Assembly (NCBI GenBank): GCA_951406725.2
Contig: OX597830.1
Location: 57,412,001 to 57,476,000, forward strand
From: Octopus vulgaris
Taxonomy: Eukaryota
Direction: 5' to 3'
DNA: 64,000 nucleotides
Within the stretch, counting starts at the first letter, position 1. Each line of letters begins with the position of its first letter. A program made the position numbers and the translations under genes. The notes under the pieces were generated by a model. It saw only the letters and a list, made by a program, of their open reading frames with translations. It did not search any database and was not told the DNA's origin. Positions 8,495 through 60,135 of this stretch are shown piece after piece.

Positions 8495-8746
8495 TTATTT
8501 CTTTATTGCTCACAAGGGCCTAAACATAGAGGGGACAGACAAGGGCAGTGACCCCAATGTGGTTTGAAATTTCCCCATGACAACAAACAAGATGAGGACA
8601 AATATCCTTATTTAATCGACCCCGAAAGGATGAAAGGCAAAATTGACCTCGGCGGAATTTGAATTCAAAACCTAACGGCAGACAGCAGACAAAATACCGC
8701 CAGGCAGTTCGTCCGTCCTGCTAACATTTCTGCCAATTTGCTGCCT
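8495..8746 (-). mobile_element. tRNA-derived SINE (family 3) carrying a hammerhead-less family-A fragment at about 8561-8606
   Basis: Matches 24866-25087 and 39181-39406; B-box-like GAATTCAAATTCC on the minus strand. The insert GGTTTGAAATTTCCCCATGACAACAAACAAGATGAGGACAAATATC matches 9584-9629. Confidence 0.8.
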
Positions 8747-9278
8747 TATTACATGTATTGGTAAGTGCAAGTCAATGACCTTTTAGGGGAGTATGCAGTC
8801 AACAATGCCTTCATGTGTAACTCAGATGGGAGCAGTATTTTTATGTAAGTTGTACCTGTATTTTGCACAATACCTGCAAACATTCAGTGTGTCTTGATGC
8901 AGTTGCAAGAGACTAAGTGGTCACATCGTCATTGCATGACATTACTCATGAGGTTAGCGCACATCAGTCGTGAGGTGTGTGGGCTGTGAGTGGATAGTGA
9001 CATAAAAAGTAAAGGGCTGTATTATTTGCATAAGAGTGTTGCACAGAAACTGGTTGATGCCAAGTTGGAAAGAGCGTAAGTTGAAGAATGAGAAACACTT
9101 ATGATAGACAATCACCAATGGAGATTTGAAAGAAAAATACTTTGGAGGAAACCTTGAACCTCAACACTGAGACTATGGAAAATCTAGACTAAGAATATGA
9201 AGAAAACCAACAGCAACCCAAAGACCTGGGGAAAACATGCAACAGATCGCAAGTTCCACAGAGAAACCATTTCAACTA

Positions 9279-9649
9279 GTACAGTTTTATATTTAAAAAA
9301 TGAGGAATTATGTACATTATTTACATTTGACAGATATTTGTCCTCAACTTGTTTGTTGTTAGCACAACGATTCGGCTGATATATCCTCCAGCCTTCATCC
9401 GGTGTCTTGGGGAAATTTTGAACCTGGGTTCTTATTCCTAAGGTATTTTTCGATGTTATTATAATTACTATTATTATTATTATTATTATTCAGGTCACTG
9501 CCTGGAATCAAACTCGGAATCTTGGAGTTAGTAGCCCACGCTCTTAACCAATACGCCATATACCTGTGGGCATATGGCATAGTGGTTCGAAATTTCCCCA
9601 TGACAACAAACAAGATGAGGACAAATATCCGTCAAATGCAAATAATGTG
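9279..9649 (-). mobile_element. Family A tRNA-head/hammerhead element, fold-back insertion with 11-bp TSD
   Basis: Full copy on the minus strand (9279-9565) and an internally deleted inverted arm (9566-9649). CATTTCAACTA is repeated at 9268-9278 and 9650-9660. The hammerhead core is mutated (CGGATGA/GAAT). Confidence 0.8.
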
Positions 9650-10259
9650 CATTTCAACTACTGTAAAACAGTTTGTAAAAATCCTATAGAAATGAATTGA
9701 AGAAATGAGAAAGACGAGAAATTCAGCAAAGCCAACTACATCTAAATCTGACCATCAAATGCAGCTTGTGCACTGTTTTGTGCAATGATCAGTTATGTCA
9801 GTCATCAGAAATATTAAGCACAATGAATGGTTTGTCTGAAGAAAACTAAACTTACATGGAAAGCTGCAATTTGATCAATGAATCATAAGCAGATAACACG
9901 CATATATGAGTGATTGGGGCCGCATTTGGTTAACAATCTGAAATTGTAACAACAAACTACGAGTGGACTGTGCAACATGTCTAATATGTGCTGAGAGAGC
10001 ATGCATGAATGGTGTCCTAAATGAACAAATTGTATAGTGAGTGAACAGTTTTTCTGAAGAAAATTATATTCAACCAACAAGCTGAAATTCAAACAACAAA
10101 CCACAAATAAACTATGCATGCATATAAGTGGCTGCAAATACCCAAGTACGCATTTCATATAACTTGCAAATCTTTATATTTTATAGGTGAAATAAACATC
10201 AGAGATGCTTTGCTACTCAGAGGTTTTGCAAGTTCTTCTAAATCCATTGCAATGATGGA

Positions 10260-16488: not shown

Positions 16489-17503
16489 TACACAACCCAA
16501 CATGTACAAATACATAAAATATACAGAAACTGTATCGATTTATGTAGAGTAATGTGTATATAACAAGTTGCATGGCAGAATGGTGAGGGTGTTGCACTTC
16601 CAATTTGTAAGATCAGGGTTTCAATTTCTAGTCCAGGCAGTGCATTGTATTCTTGAACGACACATTTCATTTCCCCTTTGCTCCATTACATGCTGCTGTA
16701 AATGAGTTCCAGGAATAACCCAGAAGTTAACCATGCCACAAGCAATCATCCAATTCAACAAGGACTGTCGTAATCTCAGACACTTATACGCCCTGGAACC
16801 CAGGTTAAGCTCCAGCCTTAAGCATCATAGGGCTCACAACAGACCTAATGTCTATGCAACAGAAAATACAAAACCAAACCAAAACACAGACCCACTCAAG
16901 GCCCACACGGTTGTGCTCAGCAGTGAAAGCAGGCAATAAAAATAAGATAATGATAATAATAGAGTGTATCAACAAGAGCACTAAACATTAAATAACTAAG
17001 TGGTTTACAATAAAGGCAAATAACTTTTAAAATGCAGAGAATATATGCAAATAACCTTGGAAAGATATATATGAAAGATTAAACAGTAATAATGAAAGAG
17101 ATATAGGTAGAGCTTAGCGGGCTTTTTTGGAGGATTTTATTATCTTTTTTTTTCTCCAGGACTATTTATTTTATCATTTTTATTTTCCTCTTAATTCTGA
17201 CACAGTAAATCCAAAGTGATTAAAATGGATTATGAGGAAAATAAAGTGATTAATTCACTAATTTACTCATTTAATACACCAACCTCTTTCTCATACAATA
17301 TAAATGTGTGTGTGTGAATGTATGTAACAAAATAAATCAATAAAAATAACTAGATCACTTCATCAGACCCATGAAGCTGTGTGTGTGTGCGTAAATGTAC
17401 ATACATTAGTTCCTGTTTAAAAAAACAAAAAAACATGTGAAAGAACCCCTATATCAATGTATTTGGGGGTTTGTTTCTGAAATTGGGGAAATAATATGAT
17501 TAG

Positions 17504-17767
17504 TACATTATTTACACGGACATATGGTGTAGTGGTTAAGAGTGCAGGCTACTAATCCCAAGATTCCAAGTTCGATTCCAGGCAGTGACCTGAATGATAA
17601 TAATAATAACATTGAAAAATACCTTAGGAATGAGAACCCAGGTTTAAAATTTCCCCAAGACACCTGATGAAGGCTGGAGGGTATATCAGCCGAAACGTGT
17701 TAATAACAAACAAGATGAGGACAAATATCTGTCAAATGGAAAGAATTCCATGTCTCTTAAAGAACTG
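17504..17767 (+). mobile_element. Family A element: tRNA-derived head + (AAT)n + hammerhead + 3' tail, with a short inverted 3' end and 12-bp TSD
   Basis: A-box TGGTGTAGTGG 17525-17535 and B-box AGTTCGATTCC 17569-17579; hammerhead 17660-17700. Inverted TACATTATTTACA at 17504-17516. TSD TAATATGATTAG (17492-17503) / TAATATGGTTAG (17768-17779). Confidence 0.85.
17660..17700 (+). ncRNA. Minimal type-I hammerhead ribozyme (family A)
   Basis: ACAC-CTGATGA-A-GGCTG gagggtatat CAGCC-GAAA-C-GTGT. It carries a small deletion at the cleavage site relative to the 53681 copy. Confidence 0.7.
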
Positions 17768-17917
17768 TAATATGGTTAGGTTCTACTCTGGCATAAATGG
17801 ACGCATTTCAGGTTCCAGGCTCAGTCCTACATTATCTTATCTTCTAAGACAGCCCTAAACCCTTCTTCACTTGGCCTTTCTCTTCTGTTAGGCCTAGTAA
17901 ACCCCAAACTGCTTTAA

Positions 17918-29877: not shown

Positions 29878-31994
29878 ACACATTTGTGTGTATATTTTAT
29901 ATATATGTTTTCCATATAAAAAACTTTTTCGAAGTTTGGGCAAATATCAAAGAAATCGAGAAAAGGATGTCTGAGCATTTTACCTAAAAAAAAAAAAAAA
30001 AGGCTGCACGTACGAAGACAAGAGAAAGAGATATCAATTACATAAGTTAAAAGCTGCACGCATGTAGGATGCAGGCGTGCATGCATGTGTAATAATGATT
30101 CTATGCACAGATTGCAGCTAACATTTTATGCATATTGTTCAGACGTGCTTAAATGAGCTTTGTGCATATTAAGTAACAATGACCATTTTTTTAAAGAAAG
30201 CAACAATCAAAAAAACAAATCTTAGCAAATATTTTTAAAAAGAAAACTTTAGTGCAATCGAATAAAACGAAAATAGATGAAATCTCCAAGAAATTAGACA
30301 AATGTACGTGAAATCAAGCTTAAATTTTTTTTTCGATATTTTTCAAAGAAAAGAAAAATATCAGCTCTGACAAACTCCTTGTGCATATATAGTTTGGTTG
30401 AACTAACCTGTATATTATGAGTGGTAAGTTATTTGCAAGTACCTGCAGATTCACCTGTAATTAACAGTCAGCCATGTTGAAAGCAAACAGGAAGTGTGAG
30501 ACTCGGTGAGAGAGAGATTAATAACACGAAATAAATGAAGTAATTAGCAAAGTTGATTAACGAAGGAAACTGGACTCTCTTTTAAAGCCTGCACTTGTCA
30601 ATGTTGCTCAACGGGTGGACCTGGCTTTTTTACAGCAGAATCATTTATTAAAGATCGCTTCGTCAAGTGTTTTTAAAATAGAAAAAAAAAAAAAACTAAG
30701 TTAATGATGAACGGATGCAGCCGAGTTGGAGCAGACAGTCTTTCTCGCAGAACGATAGGTGGATCGAAGTATTCCTACAGGATCGTGTCATTGCAAGATA
30801 AAATAATTTATATCACCTAACAACTTTTTTTCTTTCTTTATCATGAAAACGTCGAAAGAATCTGGAGGAAAAAAAGCAATGGCGATTTGGAGTGGAATCA
30901 TTCTGTGAGAACACCTGGATCGAACATTCGATTCAGGTGAAAATAGGTAAACGTGATTAAGAAAGATGATTAATTTACATGAAAACTTCTCATCTCAACT
31001 ACGTTACGAGTAATTAATGCTTTTGTTTTCTTTTTTAAGACAATATGGCCACTGTTGATTCAATAAGATCGAGAATTTCTTCTGACGAGACTCAAGACTT
31101 CATATTTATAGAAGAAAGCAAATGAGATTGTGCAAAGGTGCGAGCGGCGTGAGTGGAGTAAAACAACTGGGAATCGAAACCGGGTAAGAGTGTCGACTCG
31201 CCGGGGCAGTTTACCTCTGCTCTACGGCGCACACTGCAGGTGATGATGATGATGATGATGATGAAACAAAATTTATAGGTTTTTTTTGTTTTGTTTTGTG
31301 TTTTAATATACGTTCGTAGGATAGGTATGATAACATTCAACCTGCTACTAATTATTAAAGGTGACGGTAAAAAAAACCTACGTCGGTAGTGGAGCCGAGC
31401 TGAAATTTGAATGGTGAAGCCACCTATTATGGATGAAAAAGTGTAACAACAACAATAATAACAGCAGCATCACTTACCTACCTGCTTCATCTAGGAAGGA
31501 GAATCGAAATCGGTGTTGGATGAGAAAATATTCCTTAAGATTAAAACATCCAGGCCAAGCACTAATTTTTTTTTCTACAGGTAAATATTACCTTCCATCC
31601 CAAGTTAAATCTAAAGAAATTTAAAATCTTATTTAAATATCAACAATTAGATTAATTAGTGATTTTATTTATATATTTCATCATCGATGTATATGAAGGG
31701 AGTAAAACTTAAGAAAAAGCTATAATATACGGGTTTTTTTTTAATATTTGGATCGGAGAAAGAGATGTAGGGAGAAAAACCATCGTTTTGCTTTGTAATT
31801 TAAAATCAAATTCCCCTAAAAACCGAACTACTTTTACATGATGTTGAATATATATTTTGTGTTGTTATTGTAAGTAATTATTTAGGTTTATTTTCGTTTT
31901 CTAAACTAATTTTTACTGATCTAACAGAGCTACATGGAAAAGTTTACAGTCGGTCATAAATAAGAAAAATAAGGGACAGATCGATACATATACG

Positions 31995-32057
<63 letters not shown>

Positions 32058-32095
32058 CATCCACATACGCGCACACACACACATATATACAGTAC

Positions 32096-32233
32096 CTTCT
32101 CTCCGCAGCAAGAGATGATATCCTTTTTCTGAGACAGAGAAACATCAGCTGCAGCAATAGTTGTAGCAGCGAAGGCGGCGGCGACGGGGTTGATGGTGGT
32201 GGCGGCGGCGGTGATCGTTATTATCGTCGTCAT
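32096..32233 (-). CDS. Possible first coding exon of a minus-strand host gene (speculative)
   Basis: ATG at 32233, 46 codons (MTTIITITAAATT...KDIISCCGEK), then AAG|GTACTG. Lies in a CpG-retaining region but is low complexity and has no recognisable domain. Confidence 0.15.
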
Positions 32234-32619
32234 AATAGTGGTGGCGGCGGTGGTGGTGGTGGTGGTGGTGGTGATAGTAATTCCAACAGACAGTACCTGA
32301 ACTATTATTCCTGGTAGCGCGAGAGGAGGGTATAAAAAAATACCCTCTTGTAAATAACAACAAAAACAACAAATTATGCAATCAACAGGAAAACGGAGAA
32401 GTTGTTACATAATTTGGTAATTCTATTGATTCTTACATTAGATCCAATCCAAATAACATTTTATTTATTTTCTCTTACCTCCACACAACATTAATAAACT
32501 GAAGCCGTGAAGAACAGGTGCGTGGGGGGGAGGGGTGCGAAGAAAGAGATGAAGAAAATCAAGTTTTTAAAAATCGCATTTTATTATATAATTACAATAT
32601 TTGACACTGTTGTTGTTTG

Positions 32620-32790
32620 TAGTGTTGTTCAGGTCAGCGGTGATCTAGCGATCCTATGATCAAAAGTGTTCCAGCCATGACCGTCTTTGTTCAAACTTAT
32701 AATATATCCTAAATATCCATTTGCAGTAGGTCAGCAGTGATTTGAGGGAGATTTGCTTCTATTTCTAGCAAGTCGAACGGCGGTACAAGA
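32620..32790 (-). repeat. Old dispersed repeat (family 4; CTAGAAATAGCAGCCAAATCTCCCTCAAATCAC)
   Basis: Related copies near 6.1, 12.75, 24.68, 25.54, 28.7, 33.0, 37.7 and 45.75 kb share the core and GGTCATGGCTGGAA..TTTGATCATAGG. Confidence 0.65.
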
Positions 32791-33286
32791 ATCCCAGCTT
32801 TGCTCATACTGTTGGTGTTGCTGCTGCTGCTGATATCGCTGTCTCCTTTCGCGCATTTGGTTTCGTTTCTTAAATATCAGACAGTATTTTCGTGTTGCTA
32901 GGTTATTCCACAACCAGCTGTGAGGTCGTTGGTTTCAATCTCCTGATCATTAAACCATATTAAGTTCTTGGTCAAGATATTCAATCTAAACAAATCTGTC
33001 TACCAAACTCTATTGCTATCCTTTAGCCCTAGGTCAGCTCTGAGTAAGCAGATTTATGATCAAAAGCGTTTCCCTCAGGCATTTCATATTTTCAAAACAG
33101 TATAGTATAATTTGGAGAAAATTTAGTTGTTATTTCTAGCAGATTCAACAATGCCATAAGACCAATCCTGAGCAACCTACAGTCTTCGAAACTTTTTCAG
33201 TGGCCGAATGGCCTTAATGAGAAATTACTTTGCATTTTATGTGGCACCGGCAACTGTAAAGGACAAGCCTGTACGGGTGGATGACA

Positions 33287-34115
33287 GTGGTTTTACTTGA
33301 ATGATTCTAAAGTGCAGCTCACATGAAGATGGGCCATGTCTCATACAGCCCGTTTCACAAAAACAGGTTGTGGTTTTACTTGAATGATTCTAAAGTGCAG
33401 CTCACATGAAGATGGGCCATGTCTCATACAGCCCATTTCACAAAAACAGGTTGTGGTTTTACTTAAATGATTCTAAAGTGCAGCTCACATGAAGATGGGC
33501 CATGTCTCATACAGCCCGTTTCACAAAAACAGGTTGTGGTTTTACTTGAATGATTCTAAAGTGCAGCTCACATGAAGATGGGCCATGTCTCATACAGCCC
33601 GTTTCACAAAAACAGGTTGTGGTTTTACTTAAATGATTCTAAAGTGCAGCTCACATGAAGATGGGCCATGTCTCATACAGCCCGTTTCACAAAAACAGGT
33701 TGTGGTTTTACTTGAATGATTCTAAAGTGCAGCTCACATGAAGATGGGCCATGTCTCATACAGCCCGTTTCACAAAAACAGGTTGTGGTTTTACTTAAAT
33801 GATTCTAAAGTGCAGCTCACATGAAGATGGGTCATGTCTCATACAGCCCGTTTCACAAAAACAGGTTGTGGTTTTACTTAAATGATTCTAAAGTGCAGCT
33901 CACATGAAGATGGGCCATGTCTCATACAGCCCGTTTCACAAAAACAGGTTGTGGTTTTACTTAAATGATTCTAAAGTGCAGCTCACATGAAGATGGGCCA
34001 TGTCTCATACAGCCCGTTTCACAAAAACAGGTTGTGGTTTTACTTAAATGATTCTAAAGTGCAGCTCACATGAAGATGGGCCCGTCTCATACAGCCCGTT
34101 TCACAAAAACAGGTT
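33287..34115. repeat. 83-bp minisatellite x10
   Basis: Unit GTGGTTTTACTTRAATGATTCTAAAGTGCAGCTCACATGAAGATGGGCCATGTCTCATACAGCCCGTTTCACAAAAACAGGTT; copies are nearly identical. Confidence 0.97.
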
Positions 34116-34912
34116 GCCTATGCCTACCATGGATGCTCTTTGTTGATCTGCTCACTATTGTAGTTGTATAACCCTGGGTCAGCCCTGATCAAGCAGTCTC
34201 ATTATAGGTGTATAATGGTATCTGCCAAACCAGATACCACTATACAACTTTGTTCTTCAATTTAACAATTCTGCCAGTCTCCATCTTAGACCAATATCTT
34301 TTTTTTTTTATTAACCTCCGAGCACAGATAGAATGCCACGAGGTATTTCATCAGACATCCTAATGATTCTACCAACTTGCCTTCATATATATGTATGTAT
34401 GTGTGAAGGCTTGTGGTTTAGTGGTTAGCGTATTCGGCACATGATCAAAAGGGCAGTGAGTTCAATATCTGGTGATGCATTGTGTCCTTGAGCAAGACCC
34501 TTTATTTCATGTTGCTCCAGTTCACTCAGCAAGCAAAAACAAGTCGTACAAGTAATTCAAAAGGGACCAGCCTTGTCATGTTGGATATCCCTGAGAACTG
34601 CATTAAGGTTACATGTGTCTGTGGAGTGCTCAGCCACTTGCATGTCAATTTCACGAGCAGGCTGTTCCTTTGATTGAATCAACAGAAACCCTTATCATCA
34701 TAACCAAAGGATCTTCGGTTGTATGTATATGTGCAGGATTATATAATACCCATACGTGCATCTATACATTATTGCATGTTATGACTATTTAGCTAAGCTA
34801 GCACAAGAATCCACAATAACGGACCTTCTACATGCTTACCTGCTCTGTTAGAAATAGCAGCTGGTGGAGCATAAAAAAAAATCAACCTTTGCATGTTGGG
34901 CCTTACAGAAAC

Positions 34913-35936
34913 AAAGCGGCTGAGTACCTTTCGAGCGTTGGGCCTGACGGAGATAAAGTGGCTGAGTTCCTTTTGAGCATTTGGCCTCATGGAGGCAAAG
35001 TGGCTGAGTTCCTTTTGAGCATTTGGCCTCATGGAGGCAAAGTGGCTGAGTTCCTTTTGAGCATTGGGCCTCATGGAGGCAAAGTGGCTGAGTTCCTTTT
35101 GAGCATTTGGCCTCATGGAGGCAAAGTGGCTGAGTTCCTTTTGAGCATTGGGCCTCATGGAGGCAAAGTGGCTGAGTTCCTTTTGAGCATTTGGCCTCAT
35201 GGAGGCAAAGTGGCTGAGTTCCTTTCGAGCATTGGGCCTCATGGAAGCAAAGTGGCTGAGTTCCTTTTGAGCATTGGGCCTCATGGAGGCAAAGTGGCTG
35301 AGTTCCTTTTGAGCATTTGGCCTCATGGAGGCAAAGTGGCTGAGTTCCTTTTGAGCATTGGGCCTCATGGAGGCAAAGTGGCTGAGTTCCCTTTGAGTGT
35401 TGGGCTAGATAGCTGAGTTCATTTTGAGTGGGCCTCATAGAGGTGAGGTGGAGGTGGCTGAGTTCCTTTCGAGCATTGGGCCTCACGGCAGCATATTGGC
35501 TGCATTCTTGGGCCACATAGAGGCAAAGTGGCTGAGTTCCTTTTGAGTGTTGAGCCTCACAGAGGTAAGGCAACTGAGTTCCTTTCAAACGTGTCTCACA
35601 GAAGTGAGGTGGCTGAGTACCTTTTGAGTGTTGGGCCTCAAGGAGGCAATGACCAAAACCTTTGGCATTATGTCATGCTTGAGAAGAAGATCCATCAAGC
35701 TAAGCAAAACCACAGTCATGGTAGATACTGGTCTCATGCAAATTGGCATGCATGCCAGTGGCACGTAAAAGCACCTGTTACATTCTCAGAGTGGTTGGTG
35801 TTAGGAAGGGCAGCCAGCTATAGAAAACCATGCCAAATCAGACTGAATCCTGGCACAGCCTTCCAGTGTGCCAGCCCAGTCAAACTGTCCAACCCATGCT
35901 GGCATGGACAGCAGACGTTAAATGATGATGATGATG
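34913..35936 (+). mobile_element. RTE LINE 3'UTR with an expanded 42-bp module
   Basis: Ends with CCATGCTGGCATGG..GACGTTAAATGATGATG; its 5' part is the 42-bp array. Confidence 0.75.
34955..35374. repeat. 42-bp minisatellite x10, with degenerate flanking units
   Basis: Unit AAAGTGGCTGAGTTCCTTTTGAGCATTKGGCCTCATGGAGGC. It explains the 14-aa-repeat ORFs in three frames. Confidence 0.95.
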
Positions 35937-35940
35937 AACT

Positions 35941-36805
35941 GGTCTGATTAATAAGTGTCTGGACTGTTGCCATAGTAACGAAGCTAAAGCACAGAAGGTG
36001 AAGCTGCTTGGCACAGATTGACGTTGAACTCTGTTGTGCATGCATACATAAGTTTCAACATTCTAGCTCAGTTGCACTGTTTACAGTAGTGCTTGGAAGG
36101 AACATGTGTAGCATGTGATTGTTGCATTGACCCTGACAGAGAAAGTTGAGCAGAGAATCTGCATCATATTTTGCCAAAAGCTTGGTGATACCTGCTCAAG
36201 GACCTACGCAAAGTTTTCATCATTCTCAACACAATCAAAGAGATCTTGTGCAACTGAAACCCAAGAGTCTTTTTGATCAGCCGAAAGTAGTTTTGGCACA
36301 AACTTGGCGGACACGCCTCTCATACCCAAATCTTCAGTGATAATGGAATGAACTGAACCGTAACTTATCTGCACATCCTCTGATAACTCACAGATAGTGA
36401 TTCGACAATTTCCCTTCACTGCTGCATGCACACCTGTGATATTTTTCTCAGTTCAGGTCTCACAGAACATTCATCAATATCAACAGTCTTTCAACCATCT
36501 TGGAAACGTCTGAACCAATGGTGTGTAGCTCATACACTCTTCTCCATACACTTTCTGCAACTTTGTGTAGGCTTCTGAGCAGGTGTTGCCACGACAAATT
36601 TCTCTGTCATGGACAATACTAAGATCACACGCTACACCCCTTCCTTCCAAGCGCTGCTGTAAACAGCGGAAGTGAGTCTAGAACATTAAATCTTAGTACA
36701 CATGCACAGCAGAGTTCAAGGTGAATCTTTGCCAAGTGGTTTTGCTCTGCAAGTTTTAGCTTTGTCACTATGGCAACAGTCCAGATACTTATTGATCAGA
36801 CCTCA
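35941..36805. mobile_element. Rearranged mariner element with two transposase 5' ends
   Basis: TIR GGTCTGATTAATAAGTGTCTGGACTGTTGCCATAGT (35941-) matches 36755-36805, followed by TA. Plus strand TEKVEQRICIIFCQKLG; minus strand RITICELSEDVQISYGSVHSIITEDLGMRGVSAKFVPKLLS (mariner HTH/WVP linker). Confidence 0.85.
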
Positions 36806-37476
36806 TATGTATCATTTAATATTTGCAATTTACAAAAAAGGTACAAATAGTTTCATGCTAATTTATTGTACTTCTAGAGCATGAAACTCTTCGTAGCTCC
36901 TTTGTAAATTGTGAATGTTAAAGGATATTTATCTCTCACTGGATGGAGGTCTTACACAGCTGATCCTATATATATATATATATGAGTGTCTTTGGTCATC
37001 AGACTGCTTAGTAAGGGCTGGCGTAACTAGAAAATCTTTGATCATGAGTCTACCCAGAAAAAGCAGACATGTGACTCAACAACAACATTCTCATTAATAC
37101 AGTTTGCTAATTAATTCAAATGAAGCTAAACATATTTTGGGACTTTCGTTCATGCAATAGGGTTCACAATGAATATGATTATTTGTAATATTTGCAACAG
37201 AATTACAGTAGCAGAATGCTATGGGCTGCAGCCCATGCTGGGGCAGAGCCTTAAAGATAACTGTTAGACTAGTGCAGGGTAATTTTATATAAGTACACCC
37301 AGGTTAAAGGTCATACATAGTCTCACTGTGTCGTTCTGTTTCACTTGATTGCAATTTCATAATTTCCAATTACACTTTAACTGCTGTGTGAGACCCTTAA
37401 ACAACTTACCTTTACTCAGTTTACCTGAGAGGTGAAAAACAAGTTGTACTCCAACTTCAAAGTTGAAGGATTAATA

Positions 37477-37543
37477 CAGAATGGTTCCCAACCTGTGATC
37501 CATGGACCCCCTGGTGGTCCATGAACTAAATTCAAAATTTCAT

Positions 37544-37576
<33 letters not shown>

Positions 37577-37642
37577 CACATAAAGATAGGCAATAGGCAT
37601 ATTAAAAGGGATTGTTGGTAGTGGAAAGGTTGGGAACCACTG
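37477..37642. mobile_element. hAT MITE with 8-bp TSD
   Basis: TIR CAGAATGGTTCCCAACCT / AGGTTGGGAACCACTG; TSD GATTAATA / GATTAGTA. Confidence 0.85.
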
Positions 37643-38269
37643 GATTAGTAATAAAAACAACAATACAGGAGGGAGCTCAATATGGTAAATTGATTCATTA
37701 GAAATAGCAGCCAAAATTCTCATAAATCATATCCTGCCATCTTAAAAACAGGTAATGACACATGGAGTAATGTAGATTTTGAGACAATAATGCCTGAAGT
37801 AAAGGGTAAACAAACCAGGGTGTTTATGGCTCAAATGATTTCGATCATAGGTCTGTTCTAAATACTAACAAATATTTTTTTTTAAATGGCAACAGCTTTC
37901 ACAAAAATCCTATCCAGCAGCTACAAGAATGAGAAGAAGAAGAAAAAACAGATGTAAAAACAATTAAGAAATAATTGTAAAATTAAAAAAGTAATAGACA
38001 TAAAAACACTTAAAAGAACAGCATTCAGCCATTGTTGATTGTTTGCTGGATGAGAAGCTTCAGCATGCTTATTGCCAGATGGGTTCAAGACCTAGGCTTC
38101 CACACTGGCCAATTGTGTGTTTGAGGGTCAGGGGATTAGCTCCAGCCACAGACTGAGAGAATTTAAACTCAGAATGTAAAGAAATGGAATAAATTCCTGC
38201 GCCAGACATTTTTCAGTCTTTGACCCCTTAGATTGTGGCCATACTGGAGCATCACCTTGAAGAGTTTAT

Positions 38270-38453
38270 TTTTTGTCTTTTATGTGTTTCAGTCATTAGA
38301 CTGTGGCCATGCTGGGGCATCACCTTGAAGAATTTTTAGTTGAATGAATCAACCCCAGTACTATTTTTTTTTAAGCCTGATAATTATTTTATCAGTCTCT
38401 AGTGCTGAACTGCTAAGTTATGGGGATGTAAACACACCAACACCAGTTGTCAT

Positions 38454-38487
<34 letters not shown>

Positions 38488-38638
38488 GACAAATTTCTTT
38501 CAGTTTCCATCTAGCAAATCCACTCACAAGGTTTTGGTTAGCCTGATGCCATAGCAGAAGATACTTAGCCAAGGTGCCACACAGTGGGACTGAACCTGGA
38601 AACATGTGGTTGGGAAGCAAGCTTCTTACCTCACAGCT
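38270..38638 (-). mobile_element. tRNA-derived SINE (family 1)
   Basis: Reverse complement of the 16106 family, with internal (TA)n. Confidence 0.8.
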
Positions 38639-39180
38639 AAGCAAACTGAACTCAGTCCATATTCTTTTTCTTAGTCTCATACCCAGTTCATCAAGGTCAT
38701 TTGCTGAACTGCTACATTACAGGGACATAAACAAACCAACACCAGTTATCTAGTAGTGACTGGGACAAACAAAAAGGCATACATTCATATACTTATATAA
38801 GAGGCTTCCACACAGTTTCCTTCCACCAAATTAACTTGCAAGATATTGGTCAGCTTGGGGCTATAATAGAAGACACTCTAGCATTTCAACCAGCCATATC
38901 CAACCCAAATATTCTTTTTCATGTTGAAAGTGACCAGATCCAGCCTCTCACACCTACCCTACAATGTCATTCTAAAAATAAACTTGAAGCTACAGGGTGA
39001 GGCATGATTAATTCCAAACAAAGCGATTAACAAATCATTTTAATTGACTGAAGAATTTGAATGTTGAAGGGTTAAGATGCTATGGGTGGAGGTTGATCCC
39101 CAAAATGCAAGGGGTTGCAAAATAAATTTCCAAGCCACAAAGTCATGCCTTGTCCCCTTGTTCCATTCTCTAACAATTCT

Positions 39181-39406
39181 TATTTCTTTACTGCCCACAA
39201 GGGGCTACACACAGAGGGGACAGACAAATGGATTAAGTCGATTATATCAACCTCAGTGCATAACTGGTACTTATTTAATCGACCCCGAAAAGATGAACGG
39301 CAAAGTTGACCTCGGCAGAATTTGAACTCAGAACGTAGCAGCAGGCAAAACACCGCTAAGCATTTCGCCCAGCGTGCTAACGTTTCTGCCAACTCCTCGC
39401 TGCCTT
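39181..39406 (-). mobile_element. tRNA-derived SINE (family 3)
   Basis: Near full-length match to 24866-25087. Confidence 0.85.
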
Positions 39407-40207
39407 AACTCTCTGACTCTTCTGTCGACCCACAGCCCTGGATGGGTTCTTTATTTATCAACTAAAAACGATGAAAAATAATGTCTAACCTCAATAGGAT
39501 TTGAGCACAGAAAACCAAAATAAAAAAAAACAATTTGCTTCCTTTAAAAAAGAAATGAAATAAATATATTTCAATAGGTGCTGCTATGGCTGTGTGGTTA
39601 AGAGGCTTGCTTTGCAACCAAATAGTTTTGAATTCAATCCTATTGTGTGACACTTTGGGAAGTGTCTTCTACAATGGCCCTGGGCTGAGCTTTGTGAGTG
39701 AATTTAGTAGATGGAAATTGTGTGACAGCTCATCATGTGTGTGTGTGTGTGTGTGTGTGTTTCAAAATGTGAACAGAAACACAACAAAGGAACAAATAGG
39801 GAACTCACGCACAGGAGGGACGTTGCTAGTTCCTCATCAGTTATCATCCAAAAAGTCCTTACAATTTCATGCCTTTAATGATAATGTTCAGCTTCAGTGG
39901 CGTCAGCTGTGAAAAGCTGCTGGGAATAATGACAAAAACAAACTCAACAAAATGTGAACATCACAACCAAAATAAAATTCAAACTATTCTACAGATAAAA
40001 TAAGGCTTTATGGCTCGAAGACAAGATGGAATGATGGGTGACACAAGGAAGATGTCCGATAGGACTGGAAATTTATTATTTAACGAAATGCCATGCATGC
40101 TACTTGTTTCTTTTTTTTACCTATTCAATTGTGTATGTATATATTCTTTTATTCATTTACTTGTTTCAGTAATTTCGACTGTGGCCATGCTGGAGCACCA
40201 CCTTTAG

Positions 40208-53440: not shown

Positions 53441-53548
53441 CAGTGTGGTAACTCTGAGCAGACCAAAGCCTTGAGAGTGAATTTGGTAGGTACATTATTT
53501 ACATTATTTACATTCAACGGATATTTGTCCTCATCTTGTTTGTTGTTA

Positions 53549-53592
53549 ACACAACATTTCAGCTGATATACTCTCCATCCTTCATCAGGTGT
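53549..53592 (-). ncRNA. Minimal hammerhead ribozyme (family A, minus arm)
   Basis: ACAC-CTGATGA-A-GGATG gagagtatat CAGCT-GAAA-TG-TT-GTGT; stem II has mismatches. Confidence 0.6.
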
Positions 53593-53680
53593 CTTGGGGA
53601 AATTTCAAACCTGGGTTCTCATTCTTAAAAAAAAAAAAAACACCTTAGGAATGAAAACCCAGGTTCAAAATTTCCCCAAG

Positions 53681-53728
53681 ACACCTGAAGAAGGCTGGAG
53701 GGTGGGTATATCAGCCGAAACGTTGTGT
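53681..53728 (+). ncRNA. Minimal hammerhead ribozyme (family A, plus arm)
   Basis: ACAC-CTGAAGA-A-GGCTG...CAGCC-GAAA-CG-TT^-GTGT; palindromic stem III AACGTT. Confidence 0.8.
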
Positions 53729-53789
53729 TAACAACAAACAAGATGAGGACAAATATCCATTGAATGTAAATAATGTAAATAATGAAAAT

Positions 53790-57815: not shown

Positions 57816-57876
57816 TTTCAAGCTTTTAAATTTGAGAGCACTGAAAATATTAAACATACCTATATATATATATATA

Positions 57877-58676
57877 TATACAATAATATGTTACATTACT
57901 CGATAGTCAAGATAAAACTCTGAGTTTCAGATGCCGAAGTGGAAATCCACAACACCATCTCTTCGGTTATCTGGCTATTTGAAAACGCTATGAAAAAATA
58001 CCGTTATATAAAAGGAAATTACTGTGTTATAACTCTGCTTGCCTGCGTACTTATACATCGCTCGCATTTTTCGTCATAAAGATTATATAAAAATACATAA
58101 AAAATATATAAAAATATATAAAATCTTCTTGGGACATAACATAGAAAGCATGTTCTATCTGTTTTCTTTAGGGGACCAAAAACGTAACAGAAATTTAGTC
58201 ACATGTGGGCATGATCCGAAAAGCAGCTTAGACCCTACTACATGTCTAAATACAAGGACAGAGCTTTTCGGATCATGCCCACATGTGACTAAATTTCTGT
58301 TACGTTTTTGGTCCCCTAAAGAAAACAGATAGAACATGCTTTTTATGTTATGTCCCAAGAAGATTTTACATATTTTTATATATTTTTTTATGTATTTTTA
58401 TATAATCTTTATGACGAAAAATGCGAGCGATGTATAAGTATGCAGGCAAGCAGAGTAATAACAGAGTAATTTCCCTTTATATAACGGTATTTTTTCATAG
58501 CGTTTTCAAATAGCCAGATAACCGAAGAGATGGTGTTGTGGATTTCCACTTCGGCATCTGAAACTCAGAGTTTTATCTTGACTATCGAGTAATGTAACAT
58601 ATTATTGTATAGATAGATTTCCTCTATTTACATAATATTGAGGTCTCTTTCTTTCTTTTGTTATCTTACCGTTTTA

Positions 58677-59050: not shown

Positions 59051-59562
59051 CCGATCTGTAGCTCTCCTTTCATCTCCTTCTCTCATACATTAACCCTCAC
59101 TTAACATAAAGACACCTACCCACCCCTACCCATGTATGGTTCTCTTACAAGCTGTATGGCTACCTCAGCAGTGTCAATGGCATGAATAAAAGCATCCAGC
59201 ACATGCTGTGGAGAAGTCAGCATTTGGAAGGGCTTCCAACTGTAGAAGCTCGGCATAATGCAGCATCATGTAATGCTAGACTCATTGGATCTTTGTCTAA
59301 ACCGTCATGGAACATAGGTAACATAGGATGATGATGATGATGATGATATATGTATGTATGGAGGTATATATATATATAATATATATCCAACTGTAGAAAT
59401 ACTGTCAGATCAGATTGGGACATGGTGCAGCCTCCTGGCTTCCCAGACCCAAGTCGAACCGTGGAACCCATGCCAGCATGGAAAATTGACATTAAACGAT
59501 GATGATGATGATGATGATGAATATATATAATAAATAATATATAATCTATATATATATAATTT

Positions 59563-59610
<48 letters not shown>

Positions 59611-59613
<3 letters not shown>

Positions 59614-60135
59614 TCATCATCATCATCATCGTTTAACGTCCGTTCTCCATGCTAGCATGGGTTGGACGGTTCGACCAGGGATCTGGGAAGCCAGAAGGCT
59701 GCACCAGGCTCTGGTCTTATCTGGCAATGTTTCTACAGCTGGATGCCCTTCCTAACGCCAACCACTCCGTGAGTGTAGTGGGTGCTTATTACGTGCCACC
59801 TGCACTGGTGCCAGACGAGGCTGGCATCGGCCACGGTCGGATTGGTGCATTTTACGTGCCACCTCCACGGAAGCCAGTCGAGGCGGCACTGGCTTCGGCC
59901 ACGATTCGGATGGTGCTTTTTACGTGCCACCGACACGGAAGCCAGTCGAGGCGGCGCTGGCATCAGCCACGATTCGGATAGTGCTTTTTACATATCTCCA
60001 GTCCAGGGGTCCTGGCATCTGCCGGGTGCCAGTCATAGGATTGGTTCAACGGAGATGTACTTGCATAGCAAGTGACCTGATTCCAAGATGCAGCATGGAA
60101 TTTTGTCAGTGAACAGGTCGTGGTCTCAAAGCGAT
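59611..60135 (-). mobile_element. RTE LINE 3'UTR fragment (probably young)
   Basis: Same motifs as above, with four ~60-70-bp modules. An opposite-strand 3' fragment lies at 59390-59520. Confidence 0.85.

Follow-up and report, generated by a model that had tools for sequence, protein, structure and literature searches.

A hammerhead-bearing short repeat with a tRNA-derived head is the terminal repeat of a Penelope-like element in Octopus vulgaris

Introduction

The described retroelement closest to the one reported here is Poseidon_Ac of Anolis, a Penelope-like element (PLE) whose published account gives one open reading frame (ORF) for a reverse transcriptase (RT) plus a GIY-YIG endonuclease (EN) at the C-terminus, terminal repeats (pLTRs), an optional tail and an inverted 5' arm, with the ORF starting inside the hammerhead-bearing repeat (PMC11167929). 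The octopus element resembles it in all of these features. Unlike Poseidon_Ac as described there, the octopus pLTR starts with a tRNA-derived head, containing A and B boxes, followed by an (AAT)n linker (PMC11167929).

Short hammerhead repeats with tRNA-related sequence have been reported from schistosomes (PMC2770079, PMC8293314, PMC8490949). Among them, Sm-alpha and Sj-alpha share with the octopus unit the combination of tRNA-related sequence and a type-I hammerhead in a short repeat, and are presented as SINE-like, with a canonical active ribozyme and no PLE ORF described as attached in those accounts (PMC2770079, PMC8490949). An earlier note on this DNA, made from the sequence alone, left open whether a short repeat with a tRNA head and a hammerhead had been described; as a combination it had, for Sm-alpha (PMC2770079). 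Unlike that of Sm-alpha, the octopus ribozyme is minimal, and the unit is the end of an autonomous element. From octopus itself, Ohshima and Okada reportedly described in 1994 the tRNA SINEs OK, OR1 and OR2, which are said to be linked to tRNA-Arg. OR2 has since been cited as a CORE-SINE. All three have tRNA-derived heads like that of the octopus unit and were compared with it by description, so that one of them may equal the unit.

A Pol III promoter derived from a small RNA and located in a terminal repeat is also a feature of the TRIMp3 elements (Cassandra, Helenus and Ajax), where it has been proposed to derive from a SINE inserted in the repeat (PMC10886601). TRIMp3 are described as non-coding LTR elements of 0.3-1.3 kb whose autonomous partners are argued to need Pol II, whereas the octopus repeat belongs to a protein-coding PLE of ~2.9 kb (PMC10886601). 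The same source assumes that protein-coding retrotransposons rely on Pol II or on read-through from the host and that only short parasites without coding capacity carry Pol III promoters (PMC10886601). Finally, non-LTR retrozymes and MRC1 are, like the octopus unit, short pLTR-derived units that are likely moved by PLEs; retrozymes are tandem and are said to be without promoters, in contrast to the octopus unit, which is dispersed, arranged head-to-head and equipped with promoter boxes (10.64898/2026.07.22.740005, PMC7761336, PMC8557442).

In the literature searched, we found no autonomous PLE with a tRNA-headed pLTR, and the available text and supplement of a curated octopus repeat paper make no mention of ribozymes (PMC13282606). 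The parts of the octopus element have precedents in Sm-alpha and in Cassandra and Helenus; their combination in a tRNA-headed PLE appears new, and Repbase, Dfam or SINEBase may already list the family.

Results and Discussion

Anatomy of the unit and its copies

We analysed a stretch of 64,000 nucleotides of Octopus vulgaris DNA, hereafter the window. For positions 17492-17779, the earlier note had described an A-box, an anticodon-like arm, a B-box, an (AAT)n run, a hammerhead, a tail and an inverted stub, and every one of these parts was found in its place:

17492-17503, + strand: left TSD, identical to the right copy at 11 of 12 nt
17503-17516, - strand: inverted stub, 14 nt of the unit's 3' region, without tail; the smallest form of the head-to-head inverted arm
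17518-17592, + strand: tRNA-derived head, a predicted Pol III promoter; closest to tRNA-Arg among the tRNA genes compared, with boxes at tRNA spacing
17525-17535, + strand: A-box TGGTGTAGTGG, in the tRNA-like head
17549-17555, + strand: anticodon-like loop, in the tRNA-like head
17570-17579, + strand: B-box, in the tRNA-like head
17593-17614, + strand: (AAT)n linker of variable length; elsewhere it adjoins or contains other (AAT)n-tailed retroelements
17630-17769, + strand: first ~55 codons of the PLE ORF, opening with the ATG at 17630; in this copy, codon 6 is a stop and there is a 3' deletion
17659-17701, + strand: minimal type-I hammerhead (stem I, CUGAUGA, extra A, stem II, GAAAC); GUU triplet deleted here
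17740-17769, + strand: PLE "tail", an optional 3' extension of 30-40 nt as described for PLEs (PMC8557442, PMC11167929); in this copy on the direct arm only
17768-17779, + strand: right TSD, paired with 17492-17503

The claim that the head is tRNA-derived is borne out by its best alignment, which is to tRNA-Arg genes (TCT, TCG) of the same genome, at a score of 64 versus a shuffled maximum of 49, within a partial isotype set made up of the tRNA genes of 30 fetched loci. ARAGORN and Rfam, run on the window, recognised neither the head nor the hammerhead. The TSD announced as 12 bp is present and matches at 11 of its 12 positions. Two points of the earlier description need amending: the focal hammerhead is defective, as set out below, and the statement that the unit has no ORF is misleading, given that from 17630 it encodes the first ~55 codons of the PLE protein; at this copy the coding part gives a tblastn match of 94% over 34 aa.

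The family members noted at 9.3, 17.5 and 53.5 kb and the fragment at 8.56 kb are all real, those other than the focal unit being as follows:

9268-9660, - strand: second insertion, with a full unit at 9277-9570 (-), a partner at 9561-9652 (+) and an 11-bp TSD at 9268-9278 and 9650-9660
53491-53789: third insertion, a headless head-to-head pair whose + arm carries a descriptor-complete hammerhead (53680)
8560-8607, + strand: fragment, with an internal deletion identical to that of the 9561-9652 copy

The partner at 9561-9652 is short, head-to-head and internally deleted. The deletion that it has in common with the fragment at 8560-8607, 1 kb away, removes the hammerhead and reflects either a local duplication or a small deleted subfamily.

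Genome-wide, the hammerhead 26-mer has 3794 exact matches versus none for the reversed control, far above chance. Twenty arbitrary 10-kb stretches contained 3 insertions, and two further unselected sets, of 92 kb and 203 kb, contained 0 and 2, from which we estimate, with wide error, roughly 30,000-40,000 insertions in the 2.8-Gb genome. Near-identical sequence is present in sequencing runs under six organism labels.

Insertion footprints

Footprints were scored at the first 60 distinct loci of the hammerhead 26-mer on one contig (C1), a sample that was taken regardless of head and flanks and in which young copies are over-represented. Of the 60 loci, 31 have an inverted copy upstream, in head-to-head arrangement. 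The 3' ends form two groups ~30-40 nt apart, and the longer end, which includes the tail, is found on exactly one arm in 28 of the 31 inverted pairs and on both arms in none (P about 2e-6). TSDs of at least 8 bp accompany 17/60 loci versus 12/200 mismatched flank pairs, and 15 of these 17 belong to the inverted class. An inverted 5' arm together with a one-sided tail of 30-40 bp has been described as the PLE signature (PMC8557442), and the tail as the mark of two internal RT start sites (PMC11167929). The proposal of the earlier note that PLE enzymes inserted these copies is upheld by the inverted arms and the one-arm tails.

Head and hammerhead occur together on one arm in only 23 of the 60 loci, and a head on either arm in 29, which counts against the reading preferred below; the remaining loci are 5'-truncated or joined at the linker to other (AAT)n-tailed elements. 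At least three such retroelements adjoin the linker (one at L118, L119, L123 and L169, one at L130, L140, L152 and L153, and one at L135 and L151). At L130 the head lies ~530 nt upstream, which shows insertion into the (AAT)n linker. At a separate locus (L099, G000:C2:2733000-2738500), about nine headless units stand head to tail in an array that also includes a short inverted arm; the cleavage triplet is missing from most of these units, and two retain a variant of it.

Linkage to a Penelope-like element

Coding sequence for RT and endonuclease was found upstream of the head in 5 of the 60 loci, plus one (L025) among the first 30, and searches with that coding sequence returned 4980 and 7461 candidates. 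Among the best 30 C-terminal (endonuclease) loci, 28 enter the unit, 27 with the head, and 2 stop at the head's first bases; the distance from stop codon to tRNA head in these C-terminal loci is typically ~33 nt. At the other end of the ORF, 6 of 30 N-terminal loci extend far enough upstream, and in all of them the unit's tail leads into the ORF; L257 begins at the head itself. The junction between tail and ORF has 66 exact matches in the genome. The autonomous PLE sharing hammerhead and tail, which the earlier note had recommended looking for, is thus found, with its ORF lying both before and after the unit, and the unit in its entirety, with the tRNA head, is the terminal repeat of this PLE.

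The column majority of natural copies is a single open frame of 831 codons, with an ATG inside the unit, 5' of the hammerhead. Its RT domain was matched (PF00078), and GIY-YIG is covered by a profile alignment that runs from RT through GIY-YIG to Neptune-like PLE proteins bearing PF01541, a direct PF01541 match being obtained in only 1 of 12 relatives (E 0.0098). The Cys-rich zinc-finger linker between RT and EN is missing, leaving a gap opposite the Neptune-like linker. As the lack of this linker is given as a criterion of the Penelope/Poseidon clade (PMC8557442), the predicted protein points to membership of that clade. The hallmarks of EN+ PLEs were found together in the family, namely an ORF with RT and GIY-YIG, a pLTR on both sides, an inverted arm with a one-sided tail and a minimal hammerhead. 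In our judgement the unit is quite probably a pLTR of Penelope/Poseidon type, composed of head, (AAT)n, minimal hammerhead and first ORF codons, with the head likely serving as an internal Pol III promoter.

No intact ORF was present among the 300 best-scored matches, in which the longest open frame is 569 aa, so the family may be extinct. The PLE protein has relatives: P0121, P0141 and P0151 are 72-75% identical to it, and the set P0121-P0131, P0141 and P0151, at 54-75% identity, is encoded on long assembly contigs. Horizontal spread is one possible explanation of these relatives. Searches of prokaryote, viral and plasmid collections did not turn up the DNA of P0121, P0141 and P0151.

Neptune-like families, which a partner search by PF01541 had brought up, were rejected as the partner because none shares the unit, and they served as controls. 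One of these families (L095:1439-3781) is young: it has (TA)n flanks, its 781-aa frame is intact at many places, and a variant hammerhead of U3-A8 type lies close to its 3' end.

Short copies and the possibility of a separate SINE

The majority of copies have no ORF and show a sharp start at the tRNA-Arg-like head. A 22-mer at the start of the head has 3155 exact matches versus 404 for a 22-mer 16 nt upstream, the two patterns differing in degeneracy. Of 30 heads in the 60 loci, 25 start no more than 7 nt away from the first base of the head, 3 were scored as continuing and 2 more continue with small deletions.

[quoted passage not shown] In keeping with such a lineage, the short copies contain promoter boxes as well as RT start sites, non-autonomous PLE derivatives have been described (MRC1, PMC8557442; retrozymes), and a variant with a 3-nt deletion is widespread, with 474 matches. 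However, divergence outside CpG sites is 5.1% in short and 5.3% in ORF-linked copies (n = 28 each, P = 0.71), and none of 30 sites tested is diagnostic, the best three being CpG sites in this small sample of 28 versus 28. Moreover, the deleted variant is present in ORF-linked copies as well (L211, L218, L230). An apparent younger age of the short copies (5 versus 14 copies) was gone after CpG masking and the addition of more copies. In view of this lack of any age or diagnostic-site difference, an independent SINE lineage is not shown; we regard it as unlikely, if still a serious contender. The distinct SINE parasitising a PLE that the earlier note had envisaged gives way to a unit that is wholly shared with the PLE. 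If the unit is the PLE's own pLTR, as we prefer, tens of thousands of PLE ends would be entered as SINEs in repeat annotation.

Possible transcription by Pol III

Many of these heads begin at a G six bases 5' of the head's first base, ~13 nt before the A-box. Pol III is expected to start ~13 nt before an A-box, at a pyrimidine-purine step, and it terminates at runs of at least four T. On the sense strand of the 2916-nt majority sequence, there are 0 such T runs versus 30 A runs. The number of TTTT expected is 2.9 under synonymous shuffling (P 0.03), 4.3 from base composition (P 0.015) and 2.3 from dinucleotides (P 0.10); among all 4-mers, TTTT shows the strongest depletion, and CCCG and GGGG are likewise absent. 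Four ORF pieces of the Neptune-like controls, from the same genome, contain 19 T runs in 5.9 kb. In 25 metagenome PLE relatives (those of 65 fetched with at least 900 nt of match), 113 T runs occur in 34.9 kb versus 87 expected, and 1 of the 25 is without any; relative to their rate, adjusted for T content, the absence in the octopus sequence has P about 0.002. A set of 38 natural copies, which are not independent of one another, has 22 T runs versus 120 expected. This absence of TTTT, seen in one family and with P ranging from 0.002 to 0.1 by null, suggests Pol III transcription, and the tRNA-derived head is likely the element's internal Pol III promoter, a prediction made from sequence.

A tRNA head directly behind the ORF, sought by A/B-box pattern or ARAGORN, was found in 0 of the 16 metagenome relatives for which DNA downstream was at hand; at a distance of 690 nt, a tRNA-Trp that is unrelated lies in two loci that overlap each other. 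In two sequencing runs under a related species label, of a long-fragment library whose strandedness is not stated, RNA reads run equally in both directions with coverage that tracks copy number; they neither pile up at the head as at a start nor end at the cleavage site, a pattern compatible with Pol III transcription as well as with its absence.

A palindrome at the head's 5' edge could instead set the boundary by fold-back, and the head could then be a passive relic of a tRNA SINE in the PLE 3' UTR, with short copies that are 5'-truncated at the palindrome and owe nothing to Pol III. The resemblance of head plus (AAT)n to a simple SINE with its tail would agree with this, as would the usual 5' truncation of PLE copies (as described in PMC8557442), the use of the 5-bp palindrome at the boundary by many inversion joints, and the lack of a start in the RNA data. 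Still, a 5-bp hairpin seems small for an 8-fold step within 16 nt, the boundary coincides with the expected Pol III start in both its distance from the A-box and its pyrimidine-purine step, both promoter boxes, A and B, are preserved and spaced as in a tRNA, and TTTT is avoided in the ORF. We therefore consider a passive head improbable and retain the reading in which the head acts as a promoter of the pLTR.

A bolder version of that reading, which we put forward tentatively and with less than even confidence, is that the element would be an autonomous protein-coding retrotransposon transcribed by Pol III from end to end, with an ORF purged of terminators and an uncapped RNA that is translated, and that it would shed solo repeats resembling SINEs, so that a SINE and the partner it depends on would be united in a single element. 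If true, a tRNA-headed PLE with a TTTT-free 2.5-kb ORF would break the split between Pol II and Pol III elements, and would open a direct path for a SINE-like family to originate within its autonomous partner. How an uncapped RNA gets translated would then become a question.

The hammerhead ribozyme

The minimal type-I hammerhead of the earlier note stands as to its type, which is that of PLEs, and 32 of 60 family loci, picked on the hammerhead 26-mer, pass the full minimal-hammerhead descriptor. The copy for which it was claimed is, however, defective: it is without 3 nt that include the GUU cleavage triplet, fails the full descriptor and, owing to the loss of the triplet, is predicted to be inactive. 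Within the window, the descriptor is passed by the 53680 copy alone, with 0 matches in 30 shuffled windows. Across the family, the hammerhead is of the minimal type-I form, has an extra nucleotide after A9 and a palindromic 15.2-16.2, and lies within the pLTR; the metagenome PLE relatives L292, L303 and L310 have the same layout.

Stem III of the family ribozyme consists of a palindromic ACGU only. Folded as single strands, the ribozyme cores are unremarkable (z -0.65 to -2.29), as is expected because stem III is absent. Minimal hammerheads with such a short palindromic stem III are reported to cleave weakly and as dimers only (PMC4209133), and cleavage in Poseidon_Ac is reported to require protein and to be dispensable for insertion (PMC11167929). 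This dispensability fits the spread of the triplet-less variant, of which there are 474 exact genome matches versus 3794 for the intact 26-mer. With ~1 copy in 9 lacking the cleavage triplet, the family provides a natural test of the role of the PLE hammerhead.

A retrozyme-like cycle, in which tandem units self-cleave, monomers circularise and reverse transcription proceeds by rolling circle, much as in the circular-RNA route that the earlier note had entertained, could draw on the L099 array, on 51 exact head-to-tail junctions and on a palindromic ACGU stem III suited to dimer cleavage (PMC4209133), but is highly improbable, given that tandems are rare (51 junctions versus 3794 + 474, or 4268, hammerhead matches), that copies end at the head and tail sites rather than at the cleavage site, that most units of the array are without the cleavage triplet, and that the focal copy fails the cleavage descriptor.

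Proposed mechanism

For the unit as a PLE pLTR with an internal promoter, we propose the following course. By analogy with the origin suggested for TRIMp3, a small tRNA SINE whose tail was (AAT)n may have inserted into the 3' UTR of a PLE. Transcription by Pol III would start ~6 nt before the head, and the PLE protein would, as in Poseidon_Ac, bind the RNA within the first codons and cut both target strands. Reverse transcription primed at two nearby internal sites, one giving the tail and the other not, would produce the head-to-head arms and the TSD. Short copies could arise by two routes: RT may begin in the 5' repeat of the full RNA and run off its 5' end, or the RNA may come from solo repeats, which contain both promoter and binding site and would in this way behave like SINEs. 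The hammerhead would be passed on as part of the pLTR, would need dimer formation or the aid of protein for cleavage, and is likely dispensable for insertion.

Other repeats in the window

Several other repeats were observed in the window. A nested long inverted repeat at 57870-58618, with 235-nt arms at 97% and 126-nt arms at 98%, is either MITE-like or a head-to-head insertion. Tandem arrays occupy 33204-34167 and 34812-35525, with periods of 83 nt and 42 nt. An abundant short repeat with an (ATG)n end is found at 59423-59706 and in other copies (D13, D19); at 59423-59706 it forms a tail-to-tail inverted pair around (TA)n, which mimics a miRNA precursor in Rfam.
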